From the IMG/VR virus record IMGVR_UViG_3300020057_001229, positions 24,688 to 88,687 of that record: a DNA stretch of 64,000 nt, one strand, 5' to 3'. Positions 3,567 to 28,883 of the stretch are shown here, one piece after another (positions within the stretch are counted from its first letter, which is position 1; each line of letters opens with the position of its first letter). Under the pieces are notes generated by a model. The model was not told the origin of the DNA. It saw only the letters and a program-made list of their open reading frames with translations, and searched no databases. This DNA comes from a virus. The translations under genes were made by a program, and so were the position numbers.

Positions 3567-3641
3567 TGGCGACCCTGGCAGGAATCCAACCTGCACGAAG
3601 GCGTTAGAAGCGCCTGATGCTATGCATTACATCACAGAGTC
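3567..3641 (-). tRNA. tRNA-Arg(TCT)
   Basis: Cloverleaf GACTCTG...CAGGGTC-GCCA, anticodon loop CTTCTAA; atypical T-loop TTGGATT. Confidence 0.85.
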
Positions 3642-3693
3642 AATTGTTTGCTGAAGAGAGGGGAGTGCGAACGTAAGATGCAAACGCGGAAGG

Positions 3694-3753
3694 TTACACC
3701 CGCCTGCGTTTTGCCTTAGAGAAAGATCTTGAAGATGTAGAGAGAAAGAACAT
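3694..3753 (-). promoter_or_regulatory. Putative Arg-sensing leader peptide MFFLSTSSRSFSKAKRRRV upstream of tRNA-Arg
   Basis: AGA plus CGC-AGG-CGG just before the stop; the Arg run lies in a hairpin arm; C-rich tract follows. Confidence 0.62.
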
Positions 3754-3807
3754 AGTAGTACCTAGATATTCACGTATACAATTTAGTATATTGTCTTCTG
3801 GAAAAAA

Positions 3808-4263
3808 ATGTCAAAGGGAAATTTCATGGATTATCCAATAGCCACCGTCCGCGAGATCAACGGAGAACTTTTTCTCGACGATCCTACGGCGCTTGCCGTC
3901 ATCAAAGCCACCAGCCGCGCCGCTTGCCGTAAGACGTTTGAGATGCAAAGAGACCGCGTAGAGCACTTCGTCACTCGCACCAGTGCGCTCAACCTTTCGA
4001 CGGAAGATGTTGTCATCGTTTTAGCCAACGCCGATGACCCTAACGGCAAACAGCTCGCCGAAGCCCTCATGCCGAACCACGATTGGCAAGCTTACCGCAA
4101 CCTAGGCGAGCTTCCCTTTGCTCGCGGGCTTGCTGAGAGGGAAGGCATCCAGTGGTTCATAGAGGATATGGAGCCTGACATGGCTTCGGTGCTCAAGAAC
4201 CATGCTGGAGTTGCTGTAGTCGTCGTAGACCACGGCGTCATAGAAGTTCTTTCGCCGTCGTAA
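3808..4263 (+). CDS. Hypothetical phage protein
   Basis: 151-aa ORF with protein-like composition. Confidence 0.7.
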   Translation: MSKGNFMDYPIATVREINGELFLDDPTALAVIKATSRAACRKTFEMQRDRVEHFVTRTSALNLSTEDVVIVLANADDPNGKQLAEALMPNHDWQAYRNLGELPFARGLAEREGIQWFIEDMEPDMASVLKNHAGVAVVVVDHGVIEVLSPS

Positions 4264-4303
4264 GAGTAGTGGTAGGCTTTCTGAAATCCCAAAGGAGCGT
4301 CTA

Positions 4304-4576
4304 ATGACTGACACCCGCGCCGAAGTTGATGCGGCATATGCGGCAATTGCAAAGAGCGAAGCGCGTTTAGCTGAGATTCGTGCAGCTTGTCCTCACACCA
4401 ACTGCCGCATCGGAAACTATTCGTACCGCATCGGCAACGTCCAGCCTGTACGGCTTTGTAGCGATTGCGATCGCGTAGTGGGCGCTCTCTCGTATGAAGA
4501 ATACACCGCTTGGGCAGGGAAAGAGCCTGTGTCAGCAGTAAGCACAACAACAACTAAGGTGTCTTATGGGTCGTAA
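4304..4576 (+). CDS. Small Cys-containing hypothetical protein
   Basis: AGGAG RBS; CPH...CSDC. Confidence 0.65.
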   Translation: MTDTRAEVDAAYAAIAKSEARLAEIRAACPHTNCRIGNYSYRIGNVQPVRLCSDCDRVVGALSYEEYTAWAGKEPVSAVSTTTTKVSYGS

Positions 4577-4835
4577 GCGAGTTGTTCATTTCTCAACTTG
4601 GAACGTTTGCGTCAGCTTCGTCCCTGCGTGCAAGCTAGACTGGTGCTACAACCACGGCTTGTTTGAGGCTCCTCACACCGACGACGAAAGCGAAGTCACT
4701 TGCAAGCGTTGCTTGAAGCAACTTGCGGAGTGGGAGTCGATGGACTTTGAGTTCGTTGACCTCCCAGAGCCACAACCAAACGTAGAACTTCTTTCGTGGC
4801 TTGGGCACCCACCTAAAGACGGTAAAACGGCATGA
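4566..4835 (+). CDS. Hypothetical protein
   Basis: Overlaps neighbours in an operon-like way; VTCKRC motif. Confidence 0.6.
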   Translation: MGRKRVVHFSTWNVCVSFVPACKLDWCYNHGLFEAPHTDDESEVTCKRCLKQLAEWESMDFEFVDLPEPQPNVELLSWLGHPPKDGKTA

Positions 4836-5152
4836 AAATTAATGTTGAGCAAGCAATCGCCTCCCGCAAGCTTTTGGCTGAACGACTACATGAGTTCTTC
4901 AAGGACCAACGTGGGAAAATGATCAGCAAGGCGCTTTTAGACCAAATGTACGGCGAACTCTACGTGTTGATCGAATCGATTAAGCAAGCAGACGTAGGCG
5001 GTATCCCGCTTGAGGCTCCTAAGTTCATGCTAAGGTTCGACGCTTTTAACAAAAGCATGTTAGAAGTGCTTCCTACCAATGAGTCTGCCGTATGGATGAC
5101 AATGCTGTGGGAGACACTAGACGGCGAACCACCACACGAAAGGCAGGCATAA
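4832..5152 (+). CDS. Hypothetical protein
   Basis: ATGA overlap with the previous gene. Confidence 0.65.
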   Translation: MKINVEQAIASRKLLAERLHEFFKDQRGKMISKALLDQMYGELYVLIESIKQADVGGIPLEAPKFMLRFDAFNKSMLEVLPTNESAVWMTMLWETLDGEPPHERQA

Positions 5153-5610
5153 GTTTGGACATGGCGACTTGGACACTCGACACAGCCACATTCAAGATTT
5201 TGGATGATGCTGTGGAAGACACTAGACGGCGAACCAGCTACACCATGCGAAAGGCAAGCCTAAGTTTGGACATGGCGACTTTGACACTCGACACAGCCAC
5301 ATTCAAGATTGTGGAAGAGCTGCGGCAGCTTCTGCTAGAGGGGCAACAACAGTTCAAGTTTGAAATGTTCAACGATCCTAAGTGCTACGGCTTTGATCTT
5401 GAAGTTGAAAGCTTTAAAGCGTCCGTCTATCTGTGGCACGAACTCAGCGCGATTGTCGTAGCTGTCTGCGGAGACGGAAGCGTCAAGAATTCAAAACAAG
5501 AGAAATTTCCGTTGATACACTTCTACGGCAAAGACACCGCCGTCGCAGAGTTCGTGCTCAAGAGTCTCGGTGCGCAGACCAAGTTCTCGCGCTGGAGTGA
5601 CGCTCTTTGA
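5092..5610 (+). CDS. Hypothetical protein; start region duplicated, true start uncertain
   Basis: ORF with a duplicated N-terminal segment. Confidence 0.5.
   Translation: MDDNAVGDTRRRTTTRKAGISLDMATWTLDTATFKILDDAVEDTRRRTSYTMRKASLSLDMATLTLDTATFKIVEELRQLLLEGQQQFKFEMFNDPKCYGFDLEVESFKASVYLWHELSAIVVAVCGDGSVKNSKQEKFPLIHFYGKDTAVAEFVLKSLGAQTKFSRWSDAL
5103..5310 (+). repeat. Imperfect ~105-110 bp tandem duplication
   Basis: TGCTGTGG..GACACTAGACGGCGAACCA and AAGTTTGGACATGGCGACTT.GACACTCGACACAGCCACATTCAAGATT each occur twice. Confidence 0.85.
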
Positions 5611-5674
5611 AAGAGGCAGCTTGAGTTGCCCTAAAAATATATACTTTGCAAATCAACTAGTTACAAGCTTTACT

Positions 5675-5701
5675 TAAAGCTTTAAGATTAAATCCCGAGA
5701 A
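5675..5701 (+). promoter_or_regulatory. sigma28-like promoter
   Basis: TAAAGCTT-N11-CCCGAGAA upstream of the 5744 ORF. Confidence 0.45.
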
Positions 5702-5743
5702 GTCTCCTGTTGGTGCCACGCACCACATCACAAAGGAGACCAG

Positions 5744-6475
5744 ATGCCAATCATCACTCGCAAGCAAGACGGCACCGAAGAGCTGACCTTCGTAGGTATG
5801 GTTCTTCAAGTCCACGGTTACGTCTATATGGGTAACGACTGTGAGAAGGCGTTTGCTACGGTCTGGCTCGAAGCTGAGGGTCGCCCTAAGCGCGTCGGCT
5901 ACAGCTCGCTCCACTACGACTACGGTCAAGACCGCAACTCTGCCGTCATCGACGCCTCCCCAGAGATCAAGACCCTCTTCAACAACTGGTGTGCCGCCGA
6001 AGAGGCGCGCCACGACGCAGAGGAAGCTGCTCGCCGCGAGCGCGAGTTCGGTCGCGGTAAGAAGGTCGTCGTCGCTCGCGGACGCAAGGTCCCTAAAGGC
6101 ACCATCGGTGAAATCTTCTGGATCGGTGACAACGGCTACGGCGAGTCGCTGGGGCTCTTCCTAGCTGACGGCACGAAGGTCTTCACGGCATCGAAGAACT
6201 GCGACATCATTCTTAAGAACGGTGTTGCTGAGCGTGCGGAAGGGGCGGCGTCCACTGAGACAGTCAAAGCTGAGTTCGCCAAAGGCGTCGGCGTCGAACT
6301 GAACGGCGAGCAGGGAACCATCTTCTGGATTGGGCAAGCAAAGAACGGCAGCGGCGTTCGTGTAGGCGTCGAATTTGCGGACGGCGACCGCCGCTTCTAC
6401 GCACAGGAGCAGGTCGCAATTCCAGGTGCGCAAGTGCAGAAGAGCCTTGAGGCAAGCACGCAAGCACACCTCTGA
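5744..6475 (+). CDS. Hypothetical phage protein with repeated beta-rich GxIFWIG modules
   Basis: AAGGAG RBS; strong codon bias; RGRKVPKGTIGEIFWIG and a second GTIFWIG. Confidence 0.8.
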   Translation: MPIITRKQDGTEELTFVGMVLQVHGYVYMGNDCEKAFATVWLEAEGRPKRVGYSSLHYDYGQDRNSAVIDASPEIKTLFNNWCAAEEARHDAEEAARREREFGRGKKVVVARGRKVPKGTIGEIFWIGDNGYGESLGLFLADGTKVFTASKNCDIILKNGVAERAEGAASTETVKAEFAKGVGVELNGEQGTIFWIGQAKNGSGVRVGVEFADGDRRFYAQEQVAIPGAQVQKSLEASTQAHL

Positions 6476-6514
6476 AAAGATCAGATGATGATCAGGCAGT
6501 TACCAGTCTTACTC

Positions 6515-6541
6515 TAAAGTCTTTAACCATTCGTCCGATAG
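6515..6541 (+). promoter_or_regulatory. sigma28-like promoter
   Basis: TAAAGTCT-N11-TCCGATAG upstream of the 6572 ORF. Confidence 0.6.
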
Positions 6542-6571
6542 AAGTCGTAACCACTCACAGAAGGCTTACCA

Positions 6572-6772
6572 ATGAAAATCAAATTGGACCTAGACGATCG
6601 GCTCAAGTTAGAAAAGCTAGCGAAGCTAGAGGGCTTCTCGTCTGCATCTGAGTACGCCTGCTTTCTCTTGGATAGTGCTATGAACTCCCTCTTGGAGAAG
6701 GCTGGTGGTGACGAAGACTACGCCGCTCTACTTGGCGCGGAAGAACTCTTCGGGAAGCAACTCCGTCAATAA
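6572..6772 (+). CDS. Small ribbon-helix-helix-like protein
   Basis: Alternating beta pattern KIKLDL then helices (LEKLAKLEG.S.SEY). Confidence 0.5.
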   Translation: MKIKLDLDDRLKLEKLAKLEGFSSASEYACFLLDSAMNSLLEKAGGDEDYAALLGAEELFGKQLRQ

Positions 6773-6786
6773 AGAGAGGCAAGAAA

Positions 6787-7185
6787 GTGAAGATCAAGCT
6801 TCAGGGGAACCTTCACGTTGCCCAAGAAGTCTTGAACGCCGTACAAGCTTTAGGCGTTCTCGACTCGTCGTTGCTGTGGGTGGAAGCCTACTCTAACGGG
6901 CGTGAGCAGGGCTTTGCGATCTTTCGTGCGACATCGAAAACAATGTCCGCCCGCTACATCATGTTCTCGGAATCTCGCGGCTCAGACCGCATCGTCATCT
7001 ACGACAACGGCGACAAGTCTCCCAACATGCAAGGCAACACGCCGTCTGAAGAGGCGTACAAAAAAGCGACGTACTTCGACTGCGGGCACTACACGCTCGC
7101 TGCCCAACACATCATCGGTCTTCTCGAAGAAGTTCCTACGACACGGCTCCAACGCTGGACGCAGAACCTTTCCCTCTCCGACTAA
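6787..7185 (+). CDS. Hypothetical protein
   Basis: GTG start with GAGG RBS, 132 aa. Confidence 0.65.
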   Translation: MKIKLQGNLHVAQEVLNAVQALGVLDSSLLWVEAYSNGREQGFAIFRATSKTMSARYIMFSESRGSDRIVIYDNGDKSPNMQGNTPSEEAYKKATYFDCGHYTLAAQHIIGLLEEVPTTRLQRWTQNLSLSD

Positions 7186-7219
7186 AAAGTCTAGACAAAA
7201 AGACCGCTACGGTTTAAAG

Positions 7220-7252
7220 GTGCAATACCTTCTCCTTCCATCGCTACCGTAA
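7220..7252 (+). promoter_or_regulatory. Second, diverged Leu/Pro-rich leader peptide (GTG start, MQYLLLPSLP)
   Basis: Homologous to 7674-7727; Leu/Pro content kept despite nucleotide divergence. Confidence 0.5.
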
Positions 7253-7254
7253 AG

Positions 7255-7569
7255 GTGCAGAGCAACCCGTCCCTTTCTATTTTTCAAGGCAGAAAGGGAA
7301 ACGAAGTGAGCACCATCTGGATGAAGCTGTTCAATAAGGTCGAAGAGGTAGCCAAGCCCTTCCTCGTCATTTCTGAAACCGCCACCTCGACCTGGCACTA
7401 CCACTTCCGACTGGTAGGTCCCGAGGGCGCGGCAGCGCTATGCGGCGCGAAACTCGGATGGGACACGACGATGCCGCTCTCGACGTGGGGGCTCAAGGAT
7501 CACATCCCGTCCCGCTACTGCGGAACATGCGAAAAGGAAGCGCGTGCTCGCGGTTTGTGGGCGGGGTGA
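7255..7569 (+). CDS. Hypothetical protein (probable start GTG ~7306)
   Basis: ORF with ALCG...YCGTC motifs, lying between the two leader copies. Confidence 0.6.
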   Translation: MQSNPSLSIFQGRKGNEVSTIWMKLFNKVEEVAKPFLVISETATSTWHYHFRLVGPEGAAALCGAKLGWDTTMPLSTWGLKDHIPSRYCGTCEKEARARGLWAG

Positions 7570-7638
7570 AGCTTAAGCTCTGCGTCTGCGAGAAGACCGC
7601 TGACGACTAAAAAATTCTCATCTACGCCTCGAAAAGTA

Positions 7639-7667
7639 TTGACGAAGAGACCGTACTACGATACGGT
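7639..7667 (+). promoter_or_regulatory. sigma70-like promoter of the tRNA-Pro/Leu operon
   Basis: TTGACG-N17-TACGGT; leader ATG starts 7 nt after the -10 box (leaderless). Confidence 0.6.
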
Positions 7668-7673
7668 TAATTT

Positions 7674-7727
7674 ATGCAATACTTTCTCCCTCCATTGCTA
7701 CCCCTCCTGACCAAGCTCTTACCGTAA
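7674..7727 (+). promoter_or_regulatory. Leu/Pro-sensing leader peptide MQYFLPPLLPLLTKLLP
   Basis: 7 Leu (CTC, TTG, CTA, CTG, TTA) and 4 Pro (all four codons) in 17 codons, upstream of tRNA-Pro and four tRNA-Leu. Confidence 0.78.
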
Positions 7728-7804
7728 AGGTAAAAGCAACACCGGTCCTATCTCCGTCTCTATTTTTCACCAGCTAAGTTTTTGAGGACAATCGTCATGT
7801 TAAA

Positions 7805-7957
7805 ATGACTCCATATCAGTGTTCGTGCTGTGGCTCCAAGACGACGCTCCCAACGTTGGTTTGGTTGCCTGAAAAAGCGCCAGAGATAGTTAAGGTAGAA
7901 TGTTTAAGGTGCGGGTTTGTGTGGTTGAAGCCGAAGGGCTTTAGTATCGTTCGATAA
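7805..7957 (+). CDS. Small zinc-ribbon protein (50 aa)
   Basis: CSCC...CLRC; below the ORF-track cutoff. Confidence 0.55.
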   Translation: MTPYQCSCCGSKTTLPTLVWLPEKAPEIVKVECLRCGFVWLKPKGFSIVR

Positions 7958-7958
7958 T

Positions 7959-8036
7959 CGGGCAGTGGGCTAATTGGTAAGCCGCTTGGTTTGGGACCAA
8001 GACATCATGCGAGTTCAAGTCTCGCCTGCCCGACCA
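7959..8036 (+). tRNA. tRNA-Pro(TGG)
   Basis: CGGGCAG...CTGCCCG-ACCA, loop TTTGGGA, T-loop TTCAAGT. Confidence 0.95.
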
Positions 8037-8076
8037 CTTCCTTAGATTCGTTTGGGAACTCAAAAGGAGATCCCAA

Positions 8077-8442
8077 ATGTCTGACGACATAGAGAAAAAA
8101 AGAAAGTATTGGCGTGATTGGTACTACAGAAAGATGGATCAAGATCCTGAGTGGCGTAAAGCAGAATCAGAGCGGAATAGCGTCAAGCGCAAAGTTAAGA
8201 GGGACTGGTTAGTAGGGCTGAAAAAAAGTATGAAGTGCGCCAGATGTGATTTTTCAGATTTTAGGGCGTTGTGCTTCCATCACTCCGATCCTTCGCAGAA
8301 AAAGGGGGAGATCGCAAATATGATAAAAGAAAACTACGGCAAAGAGCGGATTTTGGAGGAGATGGCTAAGTGTGAAGTTCTGTGTCAGAATTGCCACCAT
8401 ATTGAACACTATGAACAGCGTACACAGTCTAAAGTCGCATAA
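8077..8442 (+). CDS. HNH endonuclease
   Basis: CARC...LCFHHSDP...KCEVLCQNCHHIEH. Confidence 0.85.
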   Translation: MSDDIEKKRKYWRDWYYRKMDQDPEWRKAESERNSVKRKVKRDWLVGLKKSMKCARCDFSDFRALCFHHSDPSQKKGEIANMIKENYGKERILEEMAKCEVLCQNCHHIEHYEQRTQSKVA

Positions 8443-8560
8443 ATATCTTTTGAGTCTCGTGTGGTGGTGAAACTGGTTTACTTAGGATTGGGGGGAGAGA
8501 AGTAGGGCATCTATAGGTTCTATAGGACCATTTTCACCTACTTCTCAAAGGGCTTTTTCA

Positions 8561-8665
8561 ATGGCATATTTCAACGGTTTCGTTAGCGGCGTTCTATTTG
8601 GTCTCGGACTTTTCGTCGCTTCTGTGTTAGTACAGGCATTGTTCCATATGCCTTTGCTTGGGTAA
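8561..8665 (+). CDS. Small membrane peptide (34 aa)
   Basis: MAYFNGFVSGVLFGLGLFVASVLVQALFHMPLLG, one hydrophobic helix. Confidence 0.45.
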   Translation: MAYFNGFVSGVLFGLGLFVASVLVQALFHMPLLG

Positions 8666-8672
8666 ATCTTCC

Positions 8673-8757
8673 GCTGGCATGGTGGAATTGGTAGACACAT
8701 CAGTCTGAGAGGCTGACGGGGAAACTTGTGCAGGTTCGAGTCCTGTTGCCAGCACCA
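8673..8757 (+). tRNA. tRNA-Leu(GAG)
   Basis: GCTGGCA...TGCCAGC-ACCA, loop CTGAGAG, long variable arm. Confidence 0.93.
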
Positions 8758-8775
8758 TGTTTAGAAGAGAGTTCT

Positions 8776-9174
8776 GTGGAAATTAAAGGCACGCTAGCGG
8801 GTTGGTTTGAGACTGGTTCTGAAGGTACCTATTGGACCCTTCAAGATGAGAAACACATCGACGACAAAGGCATGTACTCCTACGAAGGGATGCATGTACT
8901 AAAAAGCGGTATGCAGCTAGTTATCCACTATCCAAAGTCAGATAAAGTCTATTGGGAAGGTCAGCTTGTTCTCGTTCCGGGTTACGATCCGAAACTTTTG
9001 AAAAAGCTAGGGTTGCATTACTACGTAAAAAAGCATCCGTCAGGGCTTAAGCAGCTCTCACTCGGCGGCTACTGGATACATAATTTACCGGTCGGGTTTG
9101 ATTTAGCAATTTGGTACCGGATCTTCTTTCTCGACGAAGGTTGGACCGGGACCTTAACCTTAATTAAGGACTAG
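8776..9174 (+). CDS. Hypothetical phage protein
   Basis: GTG start after the tRNA (the track start at 8728 overlaps the tRNA); FETGSEG motif. Confidence 0.7.
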   Translation: MEIKGTLAGWFETGSEGTYWTLQDEKHIDDKGMYSYEGMHVLKSGMQLVIHYPKSDKVYWEGQLVLVPGYDPKLLKKLGLHYYVKKHPSGLKQLSLGGYWIHNLPVGFDLAIWYRIFFLDEGWTGTLTLIKD

Positions 9175-9177
9175 CTG

Positions 9178-9414
9178 ATGCTACGAATGACGTTAGGTGC
9201 CAAAGCATATCTTGCGGGAAAAGCTCTTACGACGCCGCTGCTCAATGATCCCGTAGGTGATGAAGTGATACGCAGGCTCGACAAAGAGGATAGTGACGAT
9301 CAGTTCGATGCTTACATGATGTCTTTAGGCGACGGTGCTTCGCCCGACGACGTAGAGCTTACAGACGAAGAGTTAGACGAGTTGCGAAGAAGCAGTGAAG
9401 AGTACGAAGACTAA
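9178..9414 (+). CDS. Small acidic hypothetical protein
   Basis: Fills the gap between the CDS and the tRNA. Confidence 0.55.
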   Translation: MLRMTLGAKAYLAGKALTTPLLNDPVGDEVIRRLDKEDSDDQFDAYMMSLGDGASPDDVELTDEELDELRRSSEEYED

Positions 9415-9415
9415 A

Positions 9416-9499
9416 GGACCGATGATGGAATGGTAGACATGTCAGTTTCAAAAGCTGATGCTGTAAGGTGTGAGGGTTCAAGTCCCTCTCGGTCCACCA
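9416..9499 (+). tRNA. tRNA-Leu(CAA)
   Basis: GGACCGA...TCGGTCC-ACCA, loop TTCAAAA, long variable arm. Confidence 0.93.
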
Positions 9500-9503
9500 T
9501 AGC

Positions 9504-9527
9504 GGGGACGTGGTGAAATCGATAGAC
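9504..9527 (+). repeat. 5' fragment of tRNA-Leu(TAG); direct repeat of 9883-9906
   Basis: GGGGACGTGGTGAAATcGaTAGAC, 22/24 identical. Confidence 0.85.
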
Positions 9528-9592
9528 GAAAAGGGCAGACTTACCCATAATGAAAACGACTATTCTAACCACTTCTCATAAAGAAGAGTGCC

Positions 9593-9879
9593 ATGCAACA
9601 GCTCATTAACATGTTTGTTGGGAATCTTCCAAAACGAGTGTCTACCATTCGAGAAGCACAAGAAAGTGGGGACCTAGCAGAGGTTCAAAATTTAGCACAT
9701 CAGATGTTGGGATGTGCTGAAGGTTACGGCTTCCCTCAGTTAGGGCAAGTAGCAAGCAAGCAAGCAAGCTCGAAGCACTAATAAAAGACCATGGCAGCGA
9801 GCATAGCATCGAGTTGATGATTAATGCATTCGATGCCCAATGCCACTGCATTATCATCAGGCATGGTAATAGGCACTGA
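9593..9879 (+). pseudogene. Hpt (histidine phosphotransfer) domain gene frameshifted in an (AGCA)4 tract
   Basis: LAHQMLGCAEGYGFPQL Hpt motif; removing 8 nt restores VASKLEALIKD...RHGNRH*. Confidence 0.78.
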
Positions 9880-9882
9880 AAT

Positions 9883-9967
9883 GGGGACGTGGTGAAATTG
9901 GTAGACACACCGCGCTTAGAATGCGGCGATGAAAGTCATGTCGGTTCAAGTCCGACCGTCCCCACCA
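9883..9967 (+). tRNA. tRNA-Leu(TAG)
   Basis: GGGGACG...CGTCCCC-ACCA, loop CTTAGAA, long variable arm. Confidence 0.95.
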
Positions 9968-9996
9968 CTTTAAGTTAGCAAAACACATATCTCTAA

Positions 9997-10072
9997 GTCC
10001 ACGTAATCCAACGGCAGAGATAGAGCGCTTAAAACGCTTCCAGCGTGGGTTCGAATCCCACCGTGGACACCA
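9997..10072 (+). tRNA. tRNA-Leu(TAA) with short variable loop
   Basis: GTCCACG...CGTGGAC-ACCA, loop CTTAAAA, TTCGAAT; no long variable arm. Confidence 0.88.
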
Positions 10073-10502: not shown

Positions 10503-10648
10503 GGTGACACGTTCGGTTCCCCCATGTAGGTCTTACAAGCACTGTAAATGCCGTTGCGTTGGTTCGAACCCAACCCTCCCGGTAACGGGGGGTAGCTCAG
10601 TTGGTAGAGCACGAAATTTAGCCCTATAACCTTGAACCGAACTTCACC
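10503..10648 (+). ncRNA. Circularly permuted tRNA-like RNA (YrlA/Y-RNA-like), copy 1
   Basis: Order: anticodon-like CTGTAAA, T arm, acceptor stem closed by GTAA, D arm; enclosed by GTTCGGTTC/GAACCGAAC stem. Confidence 0.82.
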
Positions 10649-10686
10649 CACCGCAAGGTGGGTGTCCTCTTTCTGGAGATATTTAT

Positions 10687-19151: not shown

Positions 19152-20642
19152 ATGCTGAAGGCAGTGCTGCGCATAGGAGGTGGTTTAGTCGCCGTGTTCG
19201 GTGTCGTGCTGGTGACGTACACACTTAAGAGGATAGACTCTTACCTCGCGGACACACCCCTGCTTCTAGGCATATCTTCGCTTACGCTGATCGCGTTTTT
19301 CTTCGGCTGGTGGTCCGCCGTCATCTCCGCGCTTGCTTTTATTACCCTCATTAAGCTCTACGTTTCGCCAGAAATCCACACGGTGTCTTTCAGTCTTTTT
19401 GTCGCTCAGACTGCGATCATTGCGGGGCTCATCGAGAAGCTAGGTAACGCACGCCGTAGCTGCTCAGACGAAGCTACCAAATGCCAAGAGACCGAACACG
19501 AGCTTCGAGCCGCAAAAGAGCACGCAGAAAGATCTAACCAGACTAAGGGAGAATTTCTAGCCAACATGAGCCACGAGCTTCGCACTCCTCTCGGTGTCAT
19601 TCTAGGCTACAGCGAAATCATAGCGAACGACACGCCTTCAAAGGAAGAGAAGATAGAATATGCTGACGCTATTAAGCGCAATGGTGAAACGTTAGCCAGA
19701 TTGATAGATGACATACTTGACCTAAGTCTTGCAGAAGCACAAAAGATAAGTATTGAAATACTACCTACATGCCTTAAAGATCTATGTACAGTTTTAGAAA
19801 AAGAGATGACGCCTCTAGCTGTACTAAAAAATATACGATTAAAGGTACACTGCGCCGATGTTCCTAATAACATACGCACTGACCCAATTCGTCTTAGACA
19901 AATACTTAGCAATCTAGTTAACAACGGTATTAAATTCACCCCTTACGGAGGTGAAGTAAGCGTGTATGTGGAAAAATATGAAGAGACGCTATGCTTCGTC
20001 GTTCGGGACAATGGTAAGGGAATTTCTACTGAAGAAGCTAAGAAGCTTTTCAAGCCCTTCTCACAAGCCGACAGCTCTACGACGCGGAAATATGGGGGGA
20101 CAGGCTTAGGCTTAGCGCTTTCTAAAAAGCTTGCTCAAAGCCTTGGCGGGGATGTTTTTTTGCGGGAAAGCGTTCCCGGCAAAGGGAGCACATTCGTTGT
20201 TCAAATCCACTTGACGCCGACATCCTTGCACGAGACCAAGAGCAAGCATAAACATTTTGACGGCGCTCTCGACGGTGTCCGAGTCCTTCTTGCCGACGAT
20301 GCCTTCGATAACAGACTGCTTTTGAAAGCGCTTTTGAAGCCAACGGGTGCGCTGCTTCGACTAGTGGAAGACGGCGAGCAAGCGCTTCAAGCTGTGCAAC
20401 AGCACGACTTTGACGTTGTTTTCTTAGATCTTCAAATGCCTATAATGGACGGCTACGAAGCTTGCCGTGCGCTGAGAAGTCAAGGCTACACAAAACCTAT
20501 CATCGCTTTGACCGCGCACGCTATGCAGGAAGAAAGAACCAAAACGAAGACTGCTGGGTTCGATGCCCATGTCACTAAGCCGGTCAACGTCGGAAACCTC
20601 GTGAGCGCAATTCGTGCCTCGCTCGACGCCAAACCGAGTTAG
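19152..20642 (+). CDS. Membrane hybrid sensor histidine kinase (HisKA-HATPase-REC)
   Basis: FLANMSHELRTPL, NGIKFT, DNGKGI, GGTGLGL, receiver LADD...DLQMP...KP. Confidence 0.96.
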   Translation: MLKAVLRIGGGLVAVFGVVLVTYTLKRIDSYLADTPLLLGISSLTLIAFFFGWWSAVISALAFITLIKLYVSPEIHTVSFSLFVAQTAIIAGLIEKLGNARRSCSDEATKCQETEHELRAAKEHAERSNQTKGEFLANMSHELRTPLGVILGYSEIIANDTPSKEEKIEYADAIKRNGETLARLIDDILDLSLAEAQKISIEILPTCLKDLCTVLEKEMTPLAVLKNIRLKVHCADVPNNIRTDPIRLRQILSNLVNNGIKFTPYGGEVSVYVEKYEETLCFVVRDNGKGISTEEAKKLFKPFSQADSSTTRKYGGTGLGLALSKKLAQSLGGDVFLRESVPGKGSTFVVQIHLTPTSLHETKSKHKHFDGALDGVRVLLADDAFDNRLLLKALLKPTGALLRLVEDGEQALQAVQQHDFDVVFLDLQMPIMDGYEACRALRSQGYTKPIIALTAHAMQEERTKTKTAGFDAHVTKPVNVGNLVSAIRASLDAKPS

Positions 20643-22770: not shown

Positions 22771-22874
22771 GCTGGTACTTCTCCTTTCTTGAGTAGTTTC
22801 ACTTAATCTGCGCCCGTAGAAGACCTACTAGAACGTCAGATTAAATCATAAACTTACGCCTGGAGCGCTCCTCT

Positions 22875-25800
22875 ATGTCCTATTTGAAACGAGTCAACGA
22901 AGTTCTTGCTTGGGGTAACAACTGGTATTTTCACGAGCCTACTGATCCAGATGAAAAGAAGGATCAAACAGACGAGTGGACCAAGGAGCCTTTGCAGTCG
23001 ATTAAACGTCCTTTAGGTAAGTACGCGAAGACGGGCAAGCTCTTCGACGAAGACGCCAACTACACTAGGTGGGACCACGACAAAAACGACAGCGAACGTA
23101 AGGCAATGATGGTCGAAGCTCCTAACTCGGCTGCCGTAGAAGAGGCTCATAAGAAAGCAGCCACTAAGTCTCGTAAGCGTAGTGACCGCTATATCGCTAT
23201 CAAGAAAATCCAAGATCAGAAATTCTTGAAGGACATGGTGCTTGATAGTAGCGTCCACGAAGATCTTCGGTCTGCTGCTGCCACACGCATCAAAGACGAG
23301 AAAGACATCGAAGATCTCTTCCTTAAGCGCGTAGAGGGTGACTCAAGCTTTCCTGTTTCGACGCTTGTAGATTTCTTAAAGAACGAAGCTTTCATCATCA
23401 AGAATTTCGACAAGATCAAGAAGGCAGATGCTCTTCTTCATGTCAACGACGAGAAGCTTTTGACTGAACTACTGCTCGCAAATGCTGACCTCAGAGAGCA
23501 CTCCTCCGACGTTCGTAGAATTCTCGACAAGATCAACGACCAGAAGCTTATCTCCAAACTGGCTTTAGACACTAAGAACGGCGACGACCAACAGTACCGC
23601 GAGTTTCTCGCCGTAAAAAGCGACGACAAGAAAGCCTTAGAGCATCTCGCCGAACTAAAGATCGAGCGTGATCCAGCTCGCCACTACTACCACAGTGAGC
23701 CAGTTAACCATGCTGCGTCAGTAGCCTTGTTTAAGCTCAAAGACAAGAATCTCGCCAAGAAAGCCTTAGACGACTCTAACACTACCTACTTAGAAAAGCA
23801 GGTAGCGCTCTCCGTTCTTGAAGATGAAAACGAGTTCAAGAAAGTTGTCACTGACGCTGTCAAAGACGCCAGAAGGAAAAAAGCTGCCCGCGATAACGAC
23901 AGCGGCAATGACGAAGACGAAAACATCGACGATGCAGGAATCGAATTTGACGATGAAGACAACTTAGACATGCCTTCGTTCAAAACAGGTTATAACCACT
24001 ACAGAGGTGGTGAGCGTAACGAGCTTGTCAATTTTGCTTTGAGCAACATTAAAGACCAAGACTTCCTCAAGAAGGTTCTCCCTACGAGCCCTGACTTTTG
24101 GGATCTGGTTAAAGACCAAAAGTGGAAAGAAGAAATTTTCAAGACGAAAAAGGCAGAAGACGGCTCAGCGCCTGTCGAATATTTGAGCAAAGTAGGCGAC
24201 GAAAAATTCATCATGAAAGAGATTATCGACGCTCTAAAACGTGGCTCTAGCCGTTGGATTATCGACGCCATCAAAGAAGTCCACGATCAACCCTTCTTGA
24301 AAATCCTCTATGGGAAAATGGATCCTAAGAAAGAAGGCAGCTCCCTTCGTAAGGTCATCGTCGAAAACATCACAGACTCTGAATTTCTACTCAAGATCTA
24401 CAAAAGCGACAAGTCTACTGACGTTCGGGAAGCTGCCTTCAAGCACTTAGAAGATCCAGAAGCACTCTTCAAAATGTTGATGAAAGAGCGCAGCAAGAGT
24501 AACCGCCACACACTCATTTGGAAGCTTAGAAAGAACCCTGAGTGGATTGCCAAATATCTAGCTGAAGACTTCGACGACTCAGACACGCACTCTTACGGTA
24601 CTGGTAAATTAGACGCAGCTACAGCCAAAAAGATCTTGAGCGGCGATATCAAAGGTCCCCACATTAGTAGTCTTGATATGAAGAAGTTTACTGAAATTTT
24701 CAAAGACGATCAGCCAACTCTTATCAAGATGCACAACCGCAACGACCGTTTTTCTGGAAGCGCCGTAGACTACATCACCGACGAAGACTTCATTATGGAG
24801 AATGTCGGCGCAGAGAATATGGCTTGGGAAATTGTCGAGAAGCTAAAGAAGCCCGCTAACATTGCCAAGATTGCTATAGAAAATAGAGATTCTACTGTTG
24901 CAATGCGCGCGTTCCACAATCTTAAGAATCCCCCTATCGAAATTTACAACGAGATCGCCGTCAAAGCGAAAGCTGCTGACGTCCGTAAGGCAGCCGTGCC
25001 TTATGTCACCGACGACAAAGTGCTGAAGAACATTCTACTTTTCGACAAAGATATCGGTACCGTCGTACTTCCCCACTTCAAAGGTGACCTCAAGACCTTG
25101 CAAGAAGCTCTTCTTAAGGCAAAAGATCCTGGAGTGCTCAAAGCCCTCGCAGGGCGTATCAAAGACGACGCGACGTTGAAAGCCTTCGTCCTGAAGGCAA
25201 CCAACCCCGAAGTTGGAAGCCTCGCTCTCAAAAGAGTCAAGGACAAAGAATTCCTGAAAACTGTCGCTGAGAAAGGCGTTGAACCGACGTTGGTTCGAAC
25301 TGCTCTTACGACGCTAGCTGAAGACGAAGGCAATAAGGCGTTTCTAAGAACGATCTACTTCGAGCGCGACTGGCAGCCGATCTTCGATAAATCGGGTTGG
25401 AGATCGCCGTTCGGTCCCGAAAACCTCAATACTTTGATCGCTCCCTTTCTTAACGCAGACGATATGAAAAGTATCGTCATGAATCCGTCACTACTCAACA
25501 ACTTCCCTCCTGAAAAGTTGGATCTAGACGAGAAGATTGCTGCCGAGGCTCTGTCGCAAAAGCCAGAGATTGTTAAAGGCTATAACAACAACCAGCTTCA
25601 AGTTCTCTTCGACTTAGCTCCAGAGAAAGCAAAAGCGTTCTTCAGTATGAGTTTAGAGAAAATGCTCTTGTACCCGAGCATTCTCTTCGTGGCTGTGCTC
25701 CATCTTGAGCCTGAAGACCTGAACGAAGAAAACATCAGCAGCGTATACGACTGTATAAAGAAGTCGCCGCTGCAAAACCGTATTCCACAAAAAATCATCG

Positions 25801-26024
25801 ACAAGAGTTACGAGCTTGGTGATGAAGTGCAGAAGGCAGCTCTCGCTAACCGAGCTTCTGAAGGCGTCCTGACTCCAGAGCACAAAGACAAAATTGGACG
25901 TGAGCGCTTTAAGTACCGGTCGCCTACTAACCGTAACAAGCACAACCTTCCGACGAAGATCAAAGAGGCGGTCAAACATCCTAAAGAAGAGTTGTTGCGT
26001 CTTCTCGTTCAACTCGCACGCTGA
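22875..26024 (+). CDS. Large helical-repeat (HEAT-like) protein, possibly virion-internal
   Basis: 1049 aa, recurring VR.AA...I.D..FL repeats; N-terminal EVLA motif. Confidence 0.8.
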   Translation: MSYLKRVNEVLAWGNNWYFHEPTDPDEKKDQTDEWTKEPLQSIKRPLGKYAKTGKLFDEDANYTRWDHDKNDSERKAMMVEAPNSAAVEEAHKKAATKSRKRSDRYIAIKKIQDQKFLKDMVLDSSVHEDLRSAAATRIKDEKDIEDLFLKRVEGDSSFPVSTLVDFLKNEAFIIKNFDKIKKADALLHVNDEKLLTELLLANADLREHSSDVRRILDKINDQKLISKLALDTKNGDDQQYREFLAVKSDDKKALEHLAELKIERDPARHYYHSEPVNHAASVALFKLKDKNLAKKALDDSNTTYLEKQVALSVLEDENEFKKVVTDAVKDARRKKAARDNDSGNDEDENIDDAGIEFDDEDNLDMPSFKTGYNHYRGGERNELVNFALSNIKDQDFLKKVLPTSPDFWDLVKDQKWKEEIFKTKKAEDGSAPVEYLSKVGDEKFIMKEIIDALKRGSSRWIIDAIKEVHDQPFLKILYGKMDPKKEGSSLRKVIVENITDSEFLLKIYKSDKSTDVREAAFKHLEDPEALFKMLMKERSKSNRHTLIWKLRKNPEWIAKYLAEDFDDSDTHSYGTGKLDAATAKKILSGDIKGPHISSLDMKKFTEIFKDDQPTLIKMHNRNDRFSGSAVDYITDEDFIMENVGAENMAWEIVEKLKKPANIAKIAIENRDSTVAMRAFHNLKNPPIEIYNEIAVKAKAADVRKAAVPYVTDDKVLKNILLFDKDIGTVVLPHFKGDLKTLQEALLKAKDPGVLKALAGRIKDDATLKAFVLKATNPEVGSLALKRVKDKEFLKTVAEKGVEPTLVRTALTTLAEDEGNKAFLRTIYFERDWQPIFDKSGWRSPFGPENLNTLIAPFLNADDMKSIVMNPSLLNNFPPEKLDLDEKIAAEALSQKPEIVKGYNNNQLQVLFDLAPEKAKAFFSMSLEKMLLYPSILFVAVLHLEPEDLNEENISSVYDCIKKSPLQNRIPQKIIDKSYELGDEVQKAALANRASEGVLTPEHKDKIGRERFKYRSPTNRNKHNLPTKIKEAVKHPKEELLRLLVQLAR

Positions 26025-26036
26025 AAAGGATCTCAA

Positions 26037-26981
26037 ATGTTTTTCACTATCACGGCTGACCCCATTAAGGTCACAGAAGTAAAGAAGGCTCCAAGCCTTC
26101 CTATCAAGCAGATCCTCCTCGACGAGAAAGGCGATAAGGTCTTAGAGAACATCTCAGACGAAGCAGAAGTCTTTTGGGCAGACGTAAAGAAAGCCTTCCC
26201 AGCTCTCGAAGCGCAGCTCAAAGCGATCTTCGGTGGTAAAGACCGTCTCTCTGTTGGCGATCTCAAAAAGAAGATGGGGACTGTAGAAGACGACGAAGCA
26301 GCTCTCTGGCTCTCGCACGTTGACTACAACGACGCATGGCGTATTCAGCGGGAGCTTCCTGAAAACGGCGACGACGATGAAGAAGGCAACAGGGTCGAGT
26401 ATAAACAGATCGCGATCCAGCTCAACATCGGACCTTCACTTGTGAAAGCTATCGACGCTGACCCCATTGCGCAAAAGTTCTTCGAGGCTTACTCAAAAAT
26501 GACTGAAGGTGATCACCTTCACCCTAACCACACCCAGTCGATTGCTTGGGCGCGTGTCTACACCTTGAAAGACAAATGGATCATCGAAGAGCTTCAAAGC
26601 GATATTTGGGGCGCTAGTCTTAAAGCTAATGAAATTCCAGACGATGCTAAAGCCTACGACATCATCAATAAGATGCCGAAAGAGGAACAGTCTGACCTCG
26701 AACGCTTCTTTCATAAGCACTTCATGGATTGGGACAAGAAGCTCATTGCATCCGTCATCAACATGGCGCGTAAGGCAGGTGTCAAAGACATCTATATGTG
26801 GGACGAGTCGATCAAGCAGAAGGTGACACGCTCCAAAAGCAAGCTCGACAAATACTACAAGATCGTACCGCGTGACTTAGGCTTCAAGAAAGATACGCTC
26901 AACATCGCAAACAAAGATCGTCAGGTGTGGCACCGCATTGTCGCCACCTTCAAAGACAGAATTACAGCGAGTCTCAAATGA
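26037..26981 (+). CDS. Polyvalent-protein-type (GNAT-like) domain protein
   Basis: WAR....IIEELQSD motif. Confidence 0.55.
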   Translation: MFFTITADPIKVTEVKKAPSLPIKQILLDEKGDKVLENISDEAEVFWADVKKAFPALEAQLKAIFGGKDRLSVGDLKKKMGTVEDDEAALWLSHVDYNDAWRIQRELPENGDDDEEGNRVEYKQIAIQLNIGPSLVKAIDADPIAQKFFEAYSKMTEGDHLHPNHTQSIAWARVYTLKDKWIIEELQSDIWGASLKANEIPDDAKAYDIINKMPKEEQSDLERFFHKHFMDWDKKLIASVINMARKAGVKDIYMWDESIKQKVTRSKSKLDKYYKIVPRDLGFKKDTLNIANKDRQVWHRIVATFKDRITASLK

Positions 26982-27454
26982 AAATCGTAAAAGAGAAATA
27001 TCAAATTGTAGCCAAAGATTGGTCTAACGAAACATATTGGGCTTGCTTCGCTTTCGAAGACGAGATCCCCGACGACCTCCACTGCACGCACAAGTTCTTC
27101 GGTGAACAAAGCGACGAAAGCCGGGACAAGATCTTGGAGACGATGGATTCTTACTTCGCCAAGAAACCTTACGAGACCATCCAAGCCAAGTTTGACCACG
27201 AAGAGTTCTTCGGGGCTGATAAAGACGTTCGGGTTCTTCGGCTTGAGGACGGCGCTAGCCTCGATCCGTTTCTTCTCGATCTCCGCAAGAAGCTTGACGC
27301 TTTCGCCGACGACAGCTTCCCCGGCTACAAGCCGCACGTCACGACGGACCTCCCCGTAGTCGAGAAGCCTCTGACACGCTACTGTCTTTGTCAGGGTGAC
27401 AAGATTATCAAGGAGTGGAAAGCAATGGAGAAAAAAGCAGCAGCAGCAGCTTAG
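26978..27454 (+). CDS. 2H phosphoesterase (Acb1/gp57B-like)
   Basis: Two HxT motifs LHCTH and YKPHVT; ATGA-coupled start MKIVKEKYQIVA. Confidence 0.82.
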   Translation: MKIVKEKYQIVAKDWSNETYWACFAFEDEIPDDLHCTHKFFGEQSDESRDKILETMDSYFAKKPYETIQAKFDHEEFFGADKDVRVLRLEDGASLDPFLLDLRKKLDAFADDSFPGYKPHVTTDLPVVEKPLTRYCLCQGDKIIKEWKAMEKKAAAAA

Positions 27455-27456
27455 GG

Positions 27457-27485
27457 TTGACGAGTTCTGTGAGAGCTGCTAGGAT
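27457..27485 (+). promoter_or_regulatory. sigma70-like promoter of the tRNA-Asn/Glu operon
   Basis: TTGACG-N17-TAGGAT. Confidence 0.75.
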
Positions 27486-27507
27486 TTGGGTAATGGGAGT
27501 TCACAAA

Positions 27508-27549
27508 ATGTTCCGTTCCGTAAATAACAATAATGAAGAAACAAGCTAG
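27508..27549 (+). promoter_or_regulatory. Asn(/Glu)-sensing leader peptide MFRSVNNNNEETS
   Basis: GGAG RBS; AAT AAC AAT AAT GAA GAA; alternative in-frame ATG at 27493. Confidence 0.85.
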
Positions 27550-27603
27550 GGTCGAAAGTCCTTTCTGGCTTACGACCCGTTTGGTAACCCAAGCGGGTTT
27601 TTT
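27549..27603 (+). terminator. Attenuator: overlapping antiterminator and intrinsic terminator
   Basis: GGGTCG(27549)/CGACCC(27573) competes with ACCCGTTTGG-TAAC-CCAAGCGGGT-TTTTT. Confidence 0.82.
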
Positions 27604-27620
27604 ATTTGTATCGAATTTAT

Positions 27621-27698
27621 TCCGGTGTGGGGGAAGTTGGTAATCCCGCCTCGCTGTTACCGAGGAGCATGTACGTTCGATCCGTACCACCGGAGCCA
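27621..27698 (+). tRNA. tRNA-Asn(GTT)
   Basis: TCCGGTG...CACCGGA-GCCA, loop CTGTTAC. Confidence 0.93.
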
Positions 27699-27946
27699 AC
27701 TTTTTTAAAGGACACCATGAGAACTTTGAACACGCATCCGAATTGTCCGCCGACTGTCAGCAAAAACTCTGACGGTACCTTTACTGCACACGACATCGGC
27801 GAGATGTTGGATTGGCTTGCGGGAAGTCATGGGGACAGCGGTGTCCTGAAAATGTTGGCTCCAATGAAAGCAGTTGATACAGGTCGAGTCAGTGGTGTTG
27901 AGCCTGATGTTAGCGTTAGTTTAGGAAGTTACGAAGTGTGTGTAGT

Positions 27947-28450
27947 TTAAGCAGTTTCTAGCCTTATTTCTTGGTGTATTTCACGGTGGCAGTTAGCGCA
28001 GACCATAACACATTTGTCTAATTCTTGTTTTGTACGTTCCCAAGATCTAGTGTGTCCTCCTTGAGAGGGATTGAAATCTTTCACGTTAGGGTCGAGATGG
28101 TGAAACTCAAGGGCGCTTACGCATTTACTGTAGCCGCAACGAGCACAGGAGCCTCCTTTATATGCAATAGATAGCTGCTTTAACTCTCGTCTTCTGTTCG
28201 TTACTTTGTCTTTACTGTTACAGTTTATCGAGCAGAAACGTGTTTGGGTTCCAGTTAGAGGTTTTTGGCATACGTGCCATGTGCAATAGTTTCCGTTAGG
28301 TAGAGGGTTGCGTTCGTTTAGTGAGCGGGTATTGTGTAAGCCAAAGGGCGAGCAAGTAAGACAAAATTTGCGGTTACACAAATTTCTTTTTTTACCGTCA
28401 ATTACAGTGTTTATTGAGAAATGTGTGTTGCACTTTAGACAAGTAGGCAT
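27947..28450 (-). CDS. HNH endonuclease with N-terminal zinc fingers
   Basis: YKGGSCARCGY...ALEFHHLDP...ELDKCVMVCANCHREIH. Confidence 0.88.
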   Translation of the reverse strand: MPTCLKCNTHFSINTVIDGKKRNLCNRKFCLTCSPFGLHNTRSLNERNPLPNGNYCTWHVCQKPLTGTQTRFCSINCNSKDKVTNRRRELKQLSIAYKGGSCARCGYSKCVSALEFHHLDPNVKDFNPSQGGHTRSWERTKQELDKCVMVCANCHREIHQEIRLETA

Positions 28451-28515
28451 AAGTGTTTTCCGTAGCTAAGAGTTGGGTAACCAAATGGTGTTACTTAATC
28501 TAAGCGACGGTCATG

Positions 28516-28603
28516 GGGAGAGTAGCCTATCGGCACGAGGCAGCGGCTTGTTAAGCCGCCAGTGGACGTAAGTCCGAAGTGGGTTCGATTCCCACCTCTC
28601 CCT
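28516..28603 (+). tRNA. Atypical tRNA with GTT (Asn) anticodon and long variable arm
   Basis: GGGAGAG/CTCTCCC acceptor, GCGGC-TTGTTAA-GCCGC, GGAC-GTAA-GTCC variable arm, TTCGATT; no encoded CCA. Confidence 0.8.
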
Positions 28604-28629
28604 CTTTTTTTCTATAAGGAATTTTCGAT

Positions 28630-28671
28630 ATGCTGTTTCGACTAGAAGAAGAACAAATTAATTCGGGCTGA
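28630..28671 (+). promoter_or_regulatory. Glu-sensing leader peptide MLFRLEEEQINSG
   Basis: AAGGA RBS; GAA GAA GAA; 3' end TCGGGC is complementary to the terminator 5' arm. Confidence 0.85.
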
Positions 28672-28698
28672 GAGAGTCGGTAACGACAACTCTTTTAT

Positions 28699-28725
28699 GC
28701 CCGATCTTTGGATCGGGCTTTTTTT
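28699..28725 (+). terminator. Attenuator terminator directly before the tRNA-Glu genes
   Basis: GCCCGATC-TTTG-GATCGGGC-TTTTTTT. Confidence 0.88.
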
Positions 28726-28729
28726 ATGT

Positions 28730-28804
28730 GGCGTGCTCGTCTAGTGGTTAGGACGCTTGGTTCTCAGCCAGGAAAGAGGGGTTCAATTCCCCTGCACGCC
28801 TCCA
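28730..28804 (+). tRNA. tRNA-Glu(CTC)
   Basis: GGCGTGC...GCACGCC-TCCA, loop TTCTCAG. Confidence 0.92.
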
Positions 28805-28809
28805 AGTTC

Positions 28810-28883
28810 GGCGCATTCGTCTATTGGTAGGATTTCAGAATTTCAATCTGAAGAAAGGGGTTCAATTCCCCTATGCGTCACCA
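28810..28883 (+). tRNA. tRNA-Glu(TTC)
   Basis: GGCGCAT...ATGCGTC-ACCA, loop ATTTCAA. Confidence 0.92.

Follow-up and report, generated by a model that had tools for sequence, protein, structure and literature searches.

The window analyzed here is a 64,000-nucleotide (nt) stretch of viral DNA comprising bases 24688-88687 of the IMG/VR virus record IMGVR_UViG_3300020057_001229, whose full length is 88,687 bases. The record represents part of the genome of a large uncultured phage, as indicated by a CheckV completeness of 32%, by genes that include those for a major head protein, a tail-fiber-like protein and HNH endonucleases, and by the origin of its DNA in microbial-mat metagenomes. ARAGORN finds 10 transfer RNA (tRNA) genes in the window and 15 in the whole record, two further tRNA groups, Ser(CGA)-Ser(TGA)-Ser(GGA)-Thr(TGT) and Met(CAT), lying upstream of the window. 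A short, leader-like upstream open reading frame (uORF) is present at five of the six tRNA groups of the record (Table 1). A preliminary description of the window had reported four of these uORFs together with the ten tRNA genes, all of which were confirmed in place and on the correct strand by ARAGORN and an open reading frame (ORF) check. We consider it likely that the tRNA gene blocks are gated by leader-peptide transcription attenuators, which would report the supply of the matching aminoacyl-tRNA. Judged from sequence and predicted folding, this reading has good support at three leaders (Asn, Glu and Ser/Thr), is probable at Leu/Pro and is doubtful at the Arg uORF.

Leader ORFs and the tRNA blocks that follow them

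Leader composition was evaluated against all 861 ATG-initiated ORFs of 8 to 30 codons that the two strands of the full record (88,687 bases) contain. In content of the amino acids of their own blocks, the Leu/Pro, Asn and Ser/Thr leaders each come out first among the 861, and the Glu leader is equalled by seven ORFs when residues are counted and by three when run length is scored. The enrichment that the preliminary description had ascribed to all four uORFs of the window therefore stands for Leu/Pro, Asn and Glu and is unremarkable for Arg, since the Arg-richness of that uORF is equalled by 36 ORFs. The Ser/Thr leader, with six Ser and five Thr in 20 residues and a strong terminator behind it, was found outside the window when the rest of the genome was scanned for further cases, as that description had suggested.

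A blind scan, in which the 500 nt preceding each tRNA block were searched for their best-scoring uORF and this was compared with all 500-nt windows of the record, gave p values of 0.0023 for both Leu/Pro and Asn/Glu, 0.0028 for Ser/Thr and 0.116 for Arg, where 0.0023 to 0.0028 corresponds to four or five of 1,764 windows, or about the number holding the leader itself. With finer blocks, the values were 0.0011 for Asn alone, 0.011 for Glu alone and 0.064 for Arg. Within the Leu and Ser blocks, no separate leader accompanies the inner tRNAs (p = 0.06 to 0.66; 0.06 to 0.41 for the inner Leu sub-blocks), which fits one leader per operon that names all of its amino acids, Leu plus Pro in one case and Ser plus Thr in the other. 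When leaders were reassigned to blocks, the true pairing was the best of 120 permutations. All five leaders carry Phe at residue 2, 3 or 4, compared with 118 of the 861 small ORFs, and the regulatory run begins at about codon 5 or 6 in four of the five.

Small ORFs are frequent in the record, the Arg uORF has its 36 equals, and several ordinary terminators likewise have their 5' arm paired upstream, all of which would suit an explanation by chance, namely, small ORFs that happen to lie beside ordinary terminators or processing stems of neighboring transcription units. We regard this explanation as very improbable and, for the Leu/Pro, Asn, Glu and Ser/Thr leaders, close to refuted, on several grounds: (i) three leaders each head the record in precisely those amino acids that belong to the block behind them; (ii) no permutation surpasses the true pairing; (iii) the Ser/Thr case was predicted and then found; (iv) the design also occurs in the uncultured phages L029 and LR756502 and in the cultured phage phi38:1, described below; and (v) the same method yields none of 32 blocks at p<0.01 in three other phages.

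Table 1. Leaders, predicted signals and structures, and tRNA genes (positions in the window unless marked otherwise)
Feature	Position	Strand	Remarks
tRNA-Arg(TCT)	3567..3641	-	ARAGORN, Rfam
Arg hairpin	3680..3714	-	folding; 5' arm holds CGC-AGG-CGG; poor U tract, then C-rich, G-poor tract
Arg uORF MFFLSTSSRSFSKAKRRRV	3694..3753	-	Arg codons AGA, CGC, AGG, CGG; 53 nt 5' of tRNA-Arg(TCT)
Sigma-70-like promoter TTGACA-18-TATACT before Arg uORF	3785..3814	-	11/12 of consensus
Weak promoter-like site TTGACG-17-TACGGT	7639..7667	+	chosen by eye; failed consensus scan
Leu/Pro leader MQYFLPPLLPLLTKLLP	7674..7727	+	231 nt 5' of tRNA-Pro; four tRNA-Leu follow
Hairpin over final Leu/Pro leader codons and stop, without U tract	7709..7748	+	folding
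Cys-rich zinc-ribbon-like ORF, 50 amino acids	7805..7957	+	between leader and tRNA-Pro; ends 1 nt before tRNA
tRNA-Pro(TGG), tRNA-Leu(GAG), (CAA), (TAG), (TAA)	7959..10072	+	ARAGORN, Rfam; small ORFs interspersed
Asn promoter TTGACG-17-TAGGAT	27457..27485	+	consensus scan; TG before second hexamer
Asn leader MFRSVNNNNEETS	27508..27549	+	ATG behind GGAG; 71 nt 5' of tRNA-Asn
Asn antiterminator	27542..27584	+	5' arm from stop codon; 3' arm is 5' arm of terminator
Asn intrinsic terminator, 11-bp (base pair) stem and T run	27574..27605 (consensus scan: 27574-27599)	+	about 15 nt 5' of tRNA
tRNA-Asn(GTT), CCA encoded	27621..27698	+	ARAGORN only
Second tRNA with anticodon GTT, long variable arm	28516..28604	+	ARAGORN, Rfam; just 5' of Glu leader
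Shine-Dalgarno-like AAGGA	28616..28620	+	9 nt 5' of Glu leader ATG
Glu leader MLFRLEEEQINSG	28630..28671	+	three GAA at codons 6-8; 58 nt 5' of two tRNA-Glu
Glu antiterminator	28663..28704	+	TCGGGC (final two sense codons) pairs with GCCCGA in terminator 5' arm
Glu intrinsic terminator, 8-bp stem, T7	28699..28725 (consensus scan: 28699-28718)	+	ends 4 nt 5' of tRNA-Glu
tRNA-Glu(CTC), tRNA-Glu(TTC)	28730..28883	+	ARAGORN, Rfam
Ser/Thr leader MKNFVSTTSSCSTSSTTEGG	record 10606-10668, outside window		before Ser(CGA)-Ser(TGA)-Ser(GGA)-Thr(TGT)

Predicted switches in the leader transcripts

The Asn, Glu and Ser/Thr leaders have the full anatomy of an attenuator, as far as sequence and modelled folds can define it. 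In all three, a second hairpin extends from the final codons of the leader into the 5' arm of the terminator. None of 200 shuffled sequences folded as well as the native one in any of their terminators (Asn, -16.8 kcal/mol, z = -5.72; Glu, -14.6 kcal/mol, z = -5.43; Ser/Thr, -24.3 kcal/mol, z = -4.7) or antiterminators (Asn, -19.4 kcal/mol, z = -4.33; Glu, -22.1 kcal/mol, z = -5.56; Ser/Thr, -24.6 kcal/mol, z = -4.17). The mutually exclusive hairpins noted earlier at two leaders were borne out for Asn and Glu both by folding and by ribosome masking, in which the nascent transcript was folded up to the emergence of the terminator 3' arm while all RNA as far as 12 nt beyond the codon in the ribosomal aminoacyl (A) site was masked, an assumed footprint. 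While the cognate codons occupy the A site, the antiterminator pairs 14 of 15 terminator-arm bases in Ser/Thr, 10 of 11 in Asn and 6 of 8 in Glu; it is lost 1 to 3 codons past the cognate run and is gone with the ribosome at the stop codon. In the Asn leader, where codons 6 to 9 are Asn, the antiterminator keeps 10 of 11 arm bases paired for A-site positions at codons 5 to 8 and 8 of 11 at codon 9, and a residual weak pairing of -1.8 kcal/mol is left with the ribosome at the stop; the two Glu codons of this leader, which had been read as extending the signal onward to Glu, lie at the margin of the antiterminator window, so that this extension is not supported. The Glu antiterminator is held with the A site on codons 6 to 8, retains 2 of 8 bases at codon 9 and none at the stop. 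In the three leaders, 24, 27 and 27 nt separate the stop codon from the terminator arm. Since the gap between T run and tRNA, 4 nt in Glu and about 15 nt in Asn, has no room for a promoter, the Asn and Glu tRNAs would be made only by read-through.

From these features we infer leader translation, ribosome stalling and regulated read-through. The transcript would begin with an ORF of 13 to 20 codons whose regulatory codon run starts at about codon 6 and whose final codons constitute the 5' arm of the antiterminator, the 3' arm of which would in turn be the 5' arm of the terminator in front of the tRNAs. A ribosome that reaches the stop codon would cover the antiterminator arm, so that the terminator forms and the tRNAs stay off, while scarcity of the aminoacyl-tRNA would stall the ribosome on the cognate codons, let the antiterminator form first and allow RNA polymerase to read through into the tRNA genes. 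The tRNAs thus made would restore decoding, which would amount to negative feedback on tRNA supply. The trigger could be amino acid starvation, codon demand or a tRNA-targeting defense.

Three leaders may be translated from the very end of their transcripts. In the Asn leader, an in-frame ATG at 27493, which extends the leader to 27493..27549, lies exactly 7 nt past the -10 box, making a leaderless start there possible; the Ser/Thr ATG lies 6 to 7 nt past a promoter-like -10 box (chosen by eye); and the promoter-like site before the Leu/Pro leader ends 6 nt before the ATG, so that a leaderless mRNA is possible in this case as well. Leaderless translation of the three is plausible. They lie 71 to 384 nt 5' of the matching tRNA block. 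The Glu leader is placed within a transcript, downstream of another tRNA.

An alternative that dispenses with amino acid sensing is that any ribosome on a leader blocks Rho or the terminator, tRNA output then tracking overall translation capacity and the amino acid bias being secondary. This would agree with the Arg and Leu/Pro hairpins, which overlap the ORF ends and would be melted by any ribosome there, with the C-rich, G-poor composition of both regions, which resembles that of Rho loading sites, and with the antiterminators of the Asn, Glu and Ser/Thr leaders, which form by default without a ribosome. Such generic coupling needs no amino acid bias, yet each leader is enriched for its own block, and a ribosome at the stop codon favors the terminator in the Asn, Glu and Ser/Thr leaders; we consider it unlikely.

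The Leu/Pro leader gives the strongest signal in composition, and very probably it too acts as a sensor, with another mode of stopping transcription. Its 7 Leu residues use five different codons and its 4 Pro residues all four, and the hairpin over its end reaches -11.9 kcal/mol (z = -3.85, with 0 of 200 shuffles as good). No convincing switch of the antiterminator type was obtained by folding for either the Leu/Pro or the Arg leader. The Leu/Pro ORF with the following 50 nt contains 36 C and 12 G. The Leu/Pro and Arg regions are both C-rich and G-poor, a base composition that prompts the conjecture of Rho-dependent termination.

Between this leader and tRNA-Pro lies the zinc-ribbon-like ORF, which resembles Zn_ribbon_TFIIS with an E value of 0.015, a score that falls short of the cut-off. 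The mini-ORF MLK (positions 7797-7808, plus strand), behind GAGGA, overlaps its start through ATGA and may couple its translation to that of the 50-amino-acid ORF. An 87-amino-acid ORF likewise lies downstream of the Ser/Thr leader. Leaders could thus serve mainly to control these protein genes, through translational coupling or exposure of a ribosome-binding site, with the tRNAs as passengers, a reading that we judge quite unlikely, less so than mere chance. A protein ORF stands between leader and first tRNA in two of the five cases, the Leu/Pro case has no terminator, and mycobacterial leaderless polycysteine short ORFs act on access to a ribosome-binding site (bioRxiv 10.1101/834739). Against it, no protein gene separates the Asn and Glu leaders from the tRNAs directly behind them, each leader names the amino acids of the tRNAs, and a true intrinsic terminator follows the Ser/Thr leader.

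The Arg uORF is the weakest case for attenuation, is doubtful as a leader and may be fortuitous. It has a strong promoter, and a clear Shine-Dalgarno sequence was not seen. Its hairpin is marginal (-15.3 kcal/mol, z = -2.17, with 6 of 200 shuffles as good), and a stall at the sole early AGA codon would free this hairpin, which gives no sensible regulatory logic. In C-G skew, the 60 nt behind the uORF belong to the top 0.7% of windows.

Contigs of four DNA sequencing runs were also compared with the Asn and Glu region. One run (X5) contains a relative about 90% identical, in which the piece over the Glu leader ORF has 2 differing letters in 225 nt and the piece after it 24 differing letters and 8 gaps in 212 nt. 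Among the changes listed, 28698 falls in a bulge, 28705 affects pair seven of the stem of the terminator, and 28707 lies in its loop. The Asn leader region 27349-27542 is unaligned, and the alignment restarts at the antiterminator, with a 1-base insertion in the inner loop. There are 58 further differences beyond those listed, and we draw no conclusion from the comparison.

Other phages and points against attenuation

Other phages were approached by several routes. Through the 2H-phosphoesterase-like gene that neighbors the Asn leader, a route unrelated to leaders, 23 loci were collected, only one of which, L029, has tRNAs (four Leu, four Ser and one Tyr). It has the leader MKPQSLSLLSYSSYLLSSRLRTSPRNRNRR (short form MKPQSLSLLSYSSYLLSS), in which residues 5 to 18 are exclusively Ser, Leu or Tyr, followed by a terminator with the same masking geometry as in the leaders described above. 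In a blind survey, the megaphage LR756502 was found to carry MTTSFQQQQQQQINRTD and a terminator before four tRNA-Gln (p = 0.005), with a position-dependent antiterminator in masked folds as in the leaders of the window; this was the one positive block among four testable ones, out of six. In the cultured Cellulophaga phage phi38:1 (NC_021796, around 35.3-38.8 kb), the best uORFs of three plus-strand tRNA blocks gave p values of 0.006, 0.0014 and 0.022, and two single tRNA-Glu genes gave 0.0145 and 1.0. The same predicted design is therefore present in two unrelated uncultured phages and in a cultured one, for which infection RNA sequencing has been published (PMC5335546). A search with the major head protein returned three loci, including a 236-kilobase (kb) relative (G001) whose head protein is 70% identical and whose best uORF in the blind scan is Ser-rich (p = 0.015). 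The head protein gave one weak partial match in genome_contigs, and no host.

Several points weigh against control of the tRNA genes by attenuation, the first of which concern the folds. Once the whole transcript is present, the terminator is the structure of lowest energy even if the ribosome has stalled, so the switch must be kinetic, as the choice of fold is in classical attenuators. When the ribosome is absent, the antiterminator forms in the Asn, Glu and Ser/Thr leaders, and neither a region-1 protector nor a 1:2 pause hairpin is evident in the leader folds, so that untranslated leaders should read through, in contrast to superattenuation of the trp type. In addition, the 5' arm is paired upstream at ≥80% in 4 of 22 other terminator-like rows of the record; arm capture alone is consequently not discriminating, and the argument relies on the combination of features. 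The consensus scan found no intrinsic terminator between the Leu/Pro leader and tRNA-Pro and no canonical one for the Arg uORF, so that the stalling-controlled attenuation with tRNA output proposed in the preliminary description has its anatomy in Asn and Glu and lacks it at these two.

Other difficulties arise from composition and from the tRNA genes. The Arg-richness of the Arg uORF is not distinctive. Leader codons that the downstream tRNAs can decode (4 of 6 for Ser, 3 of 5 for Thr and 2 of 4 for Arg) are no more frequent than the codon usage of the phage predicts; the matching is at the level of the amino acid and not of the codon, and the claim of cognate-codon leaders is not upheld in its literal form. 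The tRNA-Met(CAT) gene has a promoter directly before it and no leader. For tRNA-Asn, ARAGORN draws a regular cloverleaf, and the Rfam tRNA model gives no match to positions 27621-27698 (plus strand) at the gathering score or at E≤1.

Comparison with other genomes adds to these points. Three other cultured phages, Myxococcus phage Mx1, Ralstonia phage RSP15 and Erwinia phage Kaldavass, have 0 of 14, 0 of 8 and 0 of 10 blocks, respectively, at p<0.01; the absence from all 32 blocks implies that the design is not universal, and also that the test rarely fires by chance. Judged by eye, the three tRNAs of G001 each have their own promoter-like site and no leader. For covariation, neither the 251-amino-acid product of a neighboring gene nor a 24-nt stretch of the Asn tRNA found a counterpart in viral_contigs. 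The sequencing runs listed with this DNA include no RNA run.

Neighboring genes and comparison with known systems

The gene at 26927-27454 (plus strand), just 5' of the Asn attenuator, is a member of a family in which two H-x-T motifs are invariant; its own match to PF13563 has an E value of 0.041, and two homologues carry PF13563. Its likeness is to a 2H phosphoesterase or a 2'-5' RNA ligase, for which a role in healing tRNA ends is conceivable. Genes for HNH endonucleases occur in or near the tRNA blocks, at 27947-28450 (minus strand) and 32842-33954 (minus strand), the first between the Asn and Glu modules on the opposite strand. Contigs of run X3 join 28899 to 29821, so that some strains would lack the 921 nt after the tRNA-Glu pair, a segment holding a 251-amino-acid gene that resembles 2-oxoadipate dioxygenase/decarboxylase (Pfam HGLS). 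The tRNA at 28516-28604 (plus strand; Rfam, 52.6 bits) has an anticodon, GTT, for Asn codons, a long variable arm of class II type and no encoded CCA; as long variable arms are normally restricted to Leu, Ser and Tyr tRNAs, its charging identity is ambiguous. In the Leu operon, a 34-amino-acid hydrophobic ORF at 8561-8665 (plus strand), containing 7 Leu and not significantly Leu-rich (p = 0.06), lies after a long hairpin and 7 nt 5' of tRNA-Leu(GAG), and a 62-amino-acid ORF with an Hpt domain is found at 9593-9781 (plus strand). Together with a gene for a hybrid histidine kinase with a receiver domain 10 kb away (19152-20642, plus strand), the Hpt ORF appears to provide the phage with parts of a phosphorelay.

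Why and when phages use the tRNA genes they carry is still debated, the usual answers being compensation for codon usage and replacement of tRNAs destroyed by host defenses. If the tRNA blocks are gated by attenuators, phage tRNA output would be conditional and set family by family through ribosome decoding, to our knowledge the first case of a trp-type switch that controls the sensed molecule itself. The debate would also become testable, in that depletion or cleavage of one tRNA family should make one operon respond, and regulated tRNA operons would have a simple signature for annotation. We put forward only tentatively, and with more doubt than conviction, that the bank of stalling sensors, one per amino acid set, works as a tRNA homeostat, which would detect that a tRNA family of the host has been cut, depleted or left uncharged and would induce only its replacements. 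That anticodon nucleases or other tRNA-targeting defenses are among the triggers is a similarly speculative extension. The 2H-phosphoesterase-like gene beside the Asn attenuator would fit a wider module for repair and replacement of tRNAs.

T-box riboswitches resemble the phage leaders in sensing the state of a specific tRNA and in acting through a terminator/antiterminator switch; they differ in binding the tRNA directly, with neither a ribosome nor an ORF. The Rfam leader families (Thr_leader, Leu_leader, His_leader, Trp_leader and Phe_leader) and T-box gave no match in the whole window at the gathering score or in 27400-28760 and 3560-8000 at E≤1. Rho-dependent attenuation of the tnaC type is offered as a model only for the terminator-less Leu/Pro and Arg leaders, which would share with it a short ORF followed by C-rich, G-poor RNA without an intrinsic terminator; the comparison is drawn from base composition and is purely conjectural. 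A literature search found no paper that describes control of tRNA genes by leader-peptide attenuation, and the design is not described in the consulted portions of PMC3082878, bioRxiv 10.1101/834739 and PMC5335546. The nearest of these papers concerns leaderless polycysteine short ORFs of mycobacteria, in which a run of one amino acid encoded on a leaderless mRNA senses aminoacyl-tRNA supply via ribosome pausing (Canestrari et al., bioRxiv 10.1101/834739). The phage leaders are similar in that the ATGs of Leu/Pro, Ser/Thr and Asn lie 6 to 7 nt past a -10 box, and the polycysteine ORFs differ in acting on access to the ribosome-binding sites of protein genes instead of on a terminator before tRNAs.

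The closest parallels are leader-peptide attenuators of enterobacteria, such as trpL, hisL, leuL and pheL and the multivalent thrL (Thr and Ile) and ilvL (Ile, Leu and Val). Attenuators of this kind in amino acid operons are treated in the abstract of PMC1183508. In common with them, the phage leaders consist of a small ORF that carries a run of regulatory codons. The Asn, Glu and Ser/Thr leaders also share an intrinsic terminator, overlapped by an antiterminator that depends on ribosome position, and in both systems one leader could sense several amino acids. Unlike them, the phage leaders would regulate tRNAs and not biosynthetic enzymes, so that the loop closes on tRNA supply; they are phage encoded, have no evident protector or pause hairpin, should read through when untranslated and are likely to have leaderless starts. 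In E. coli, attenuation through the pheM leader controls pheST, which encodes phenylalanyl-tRNA synthetase. Here too a leader-peptide attenuator governs a component of the machinery that translates the amino acid it senses; the pheST system is cellular, senses a single amino acid and yields a synthetase protein, whereas the output of the phage leaders would be the tRNA.

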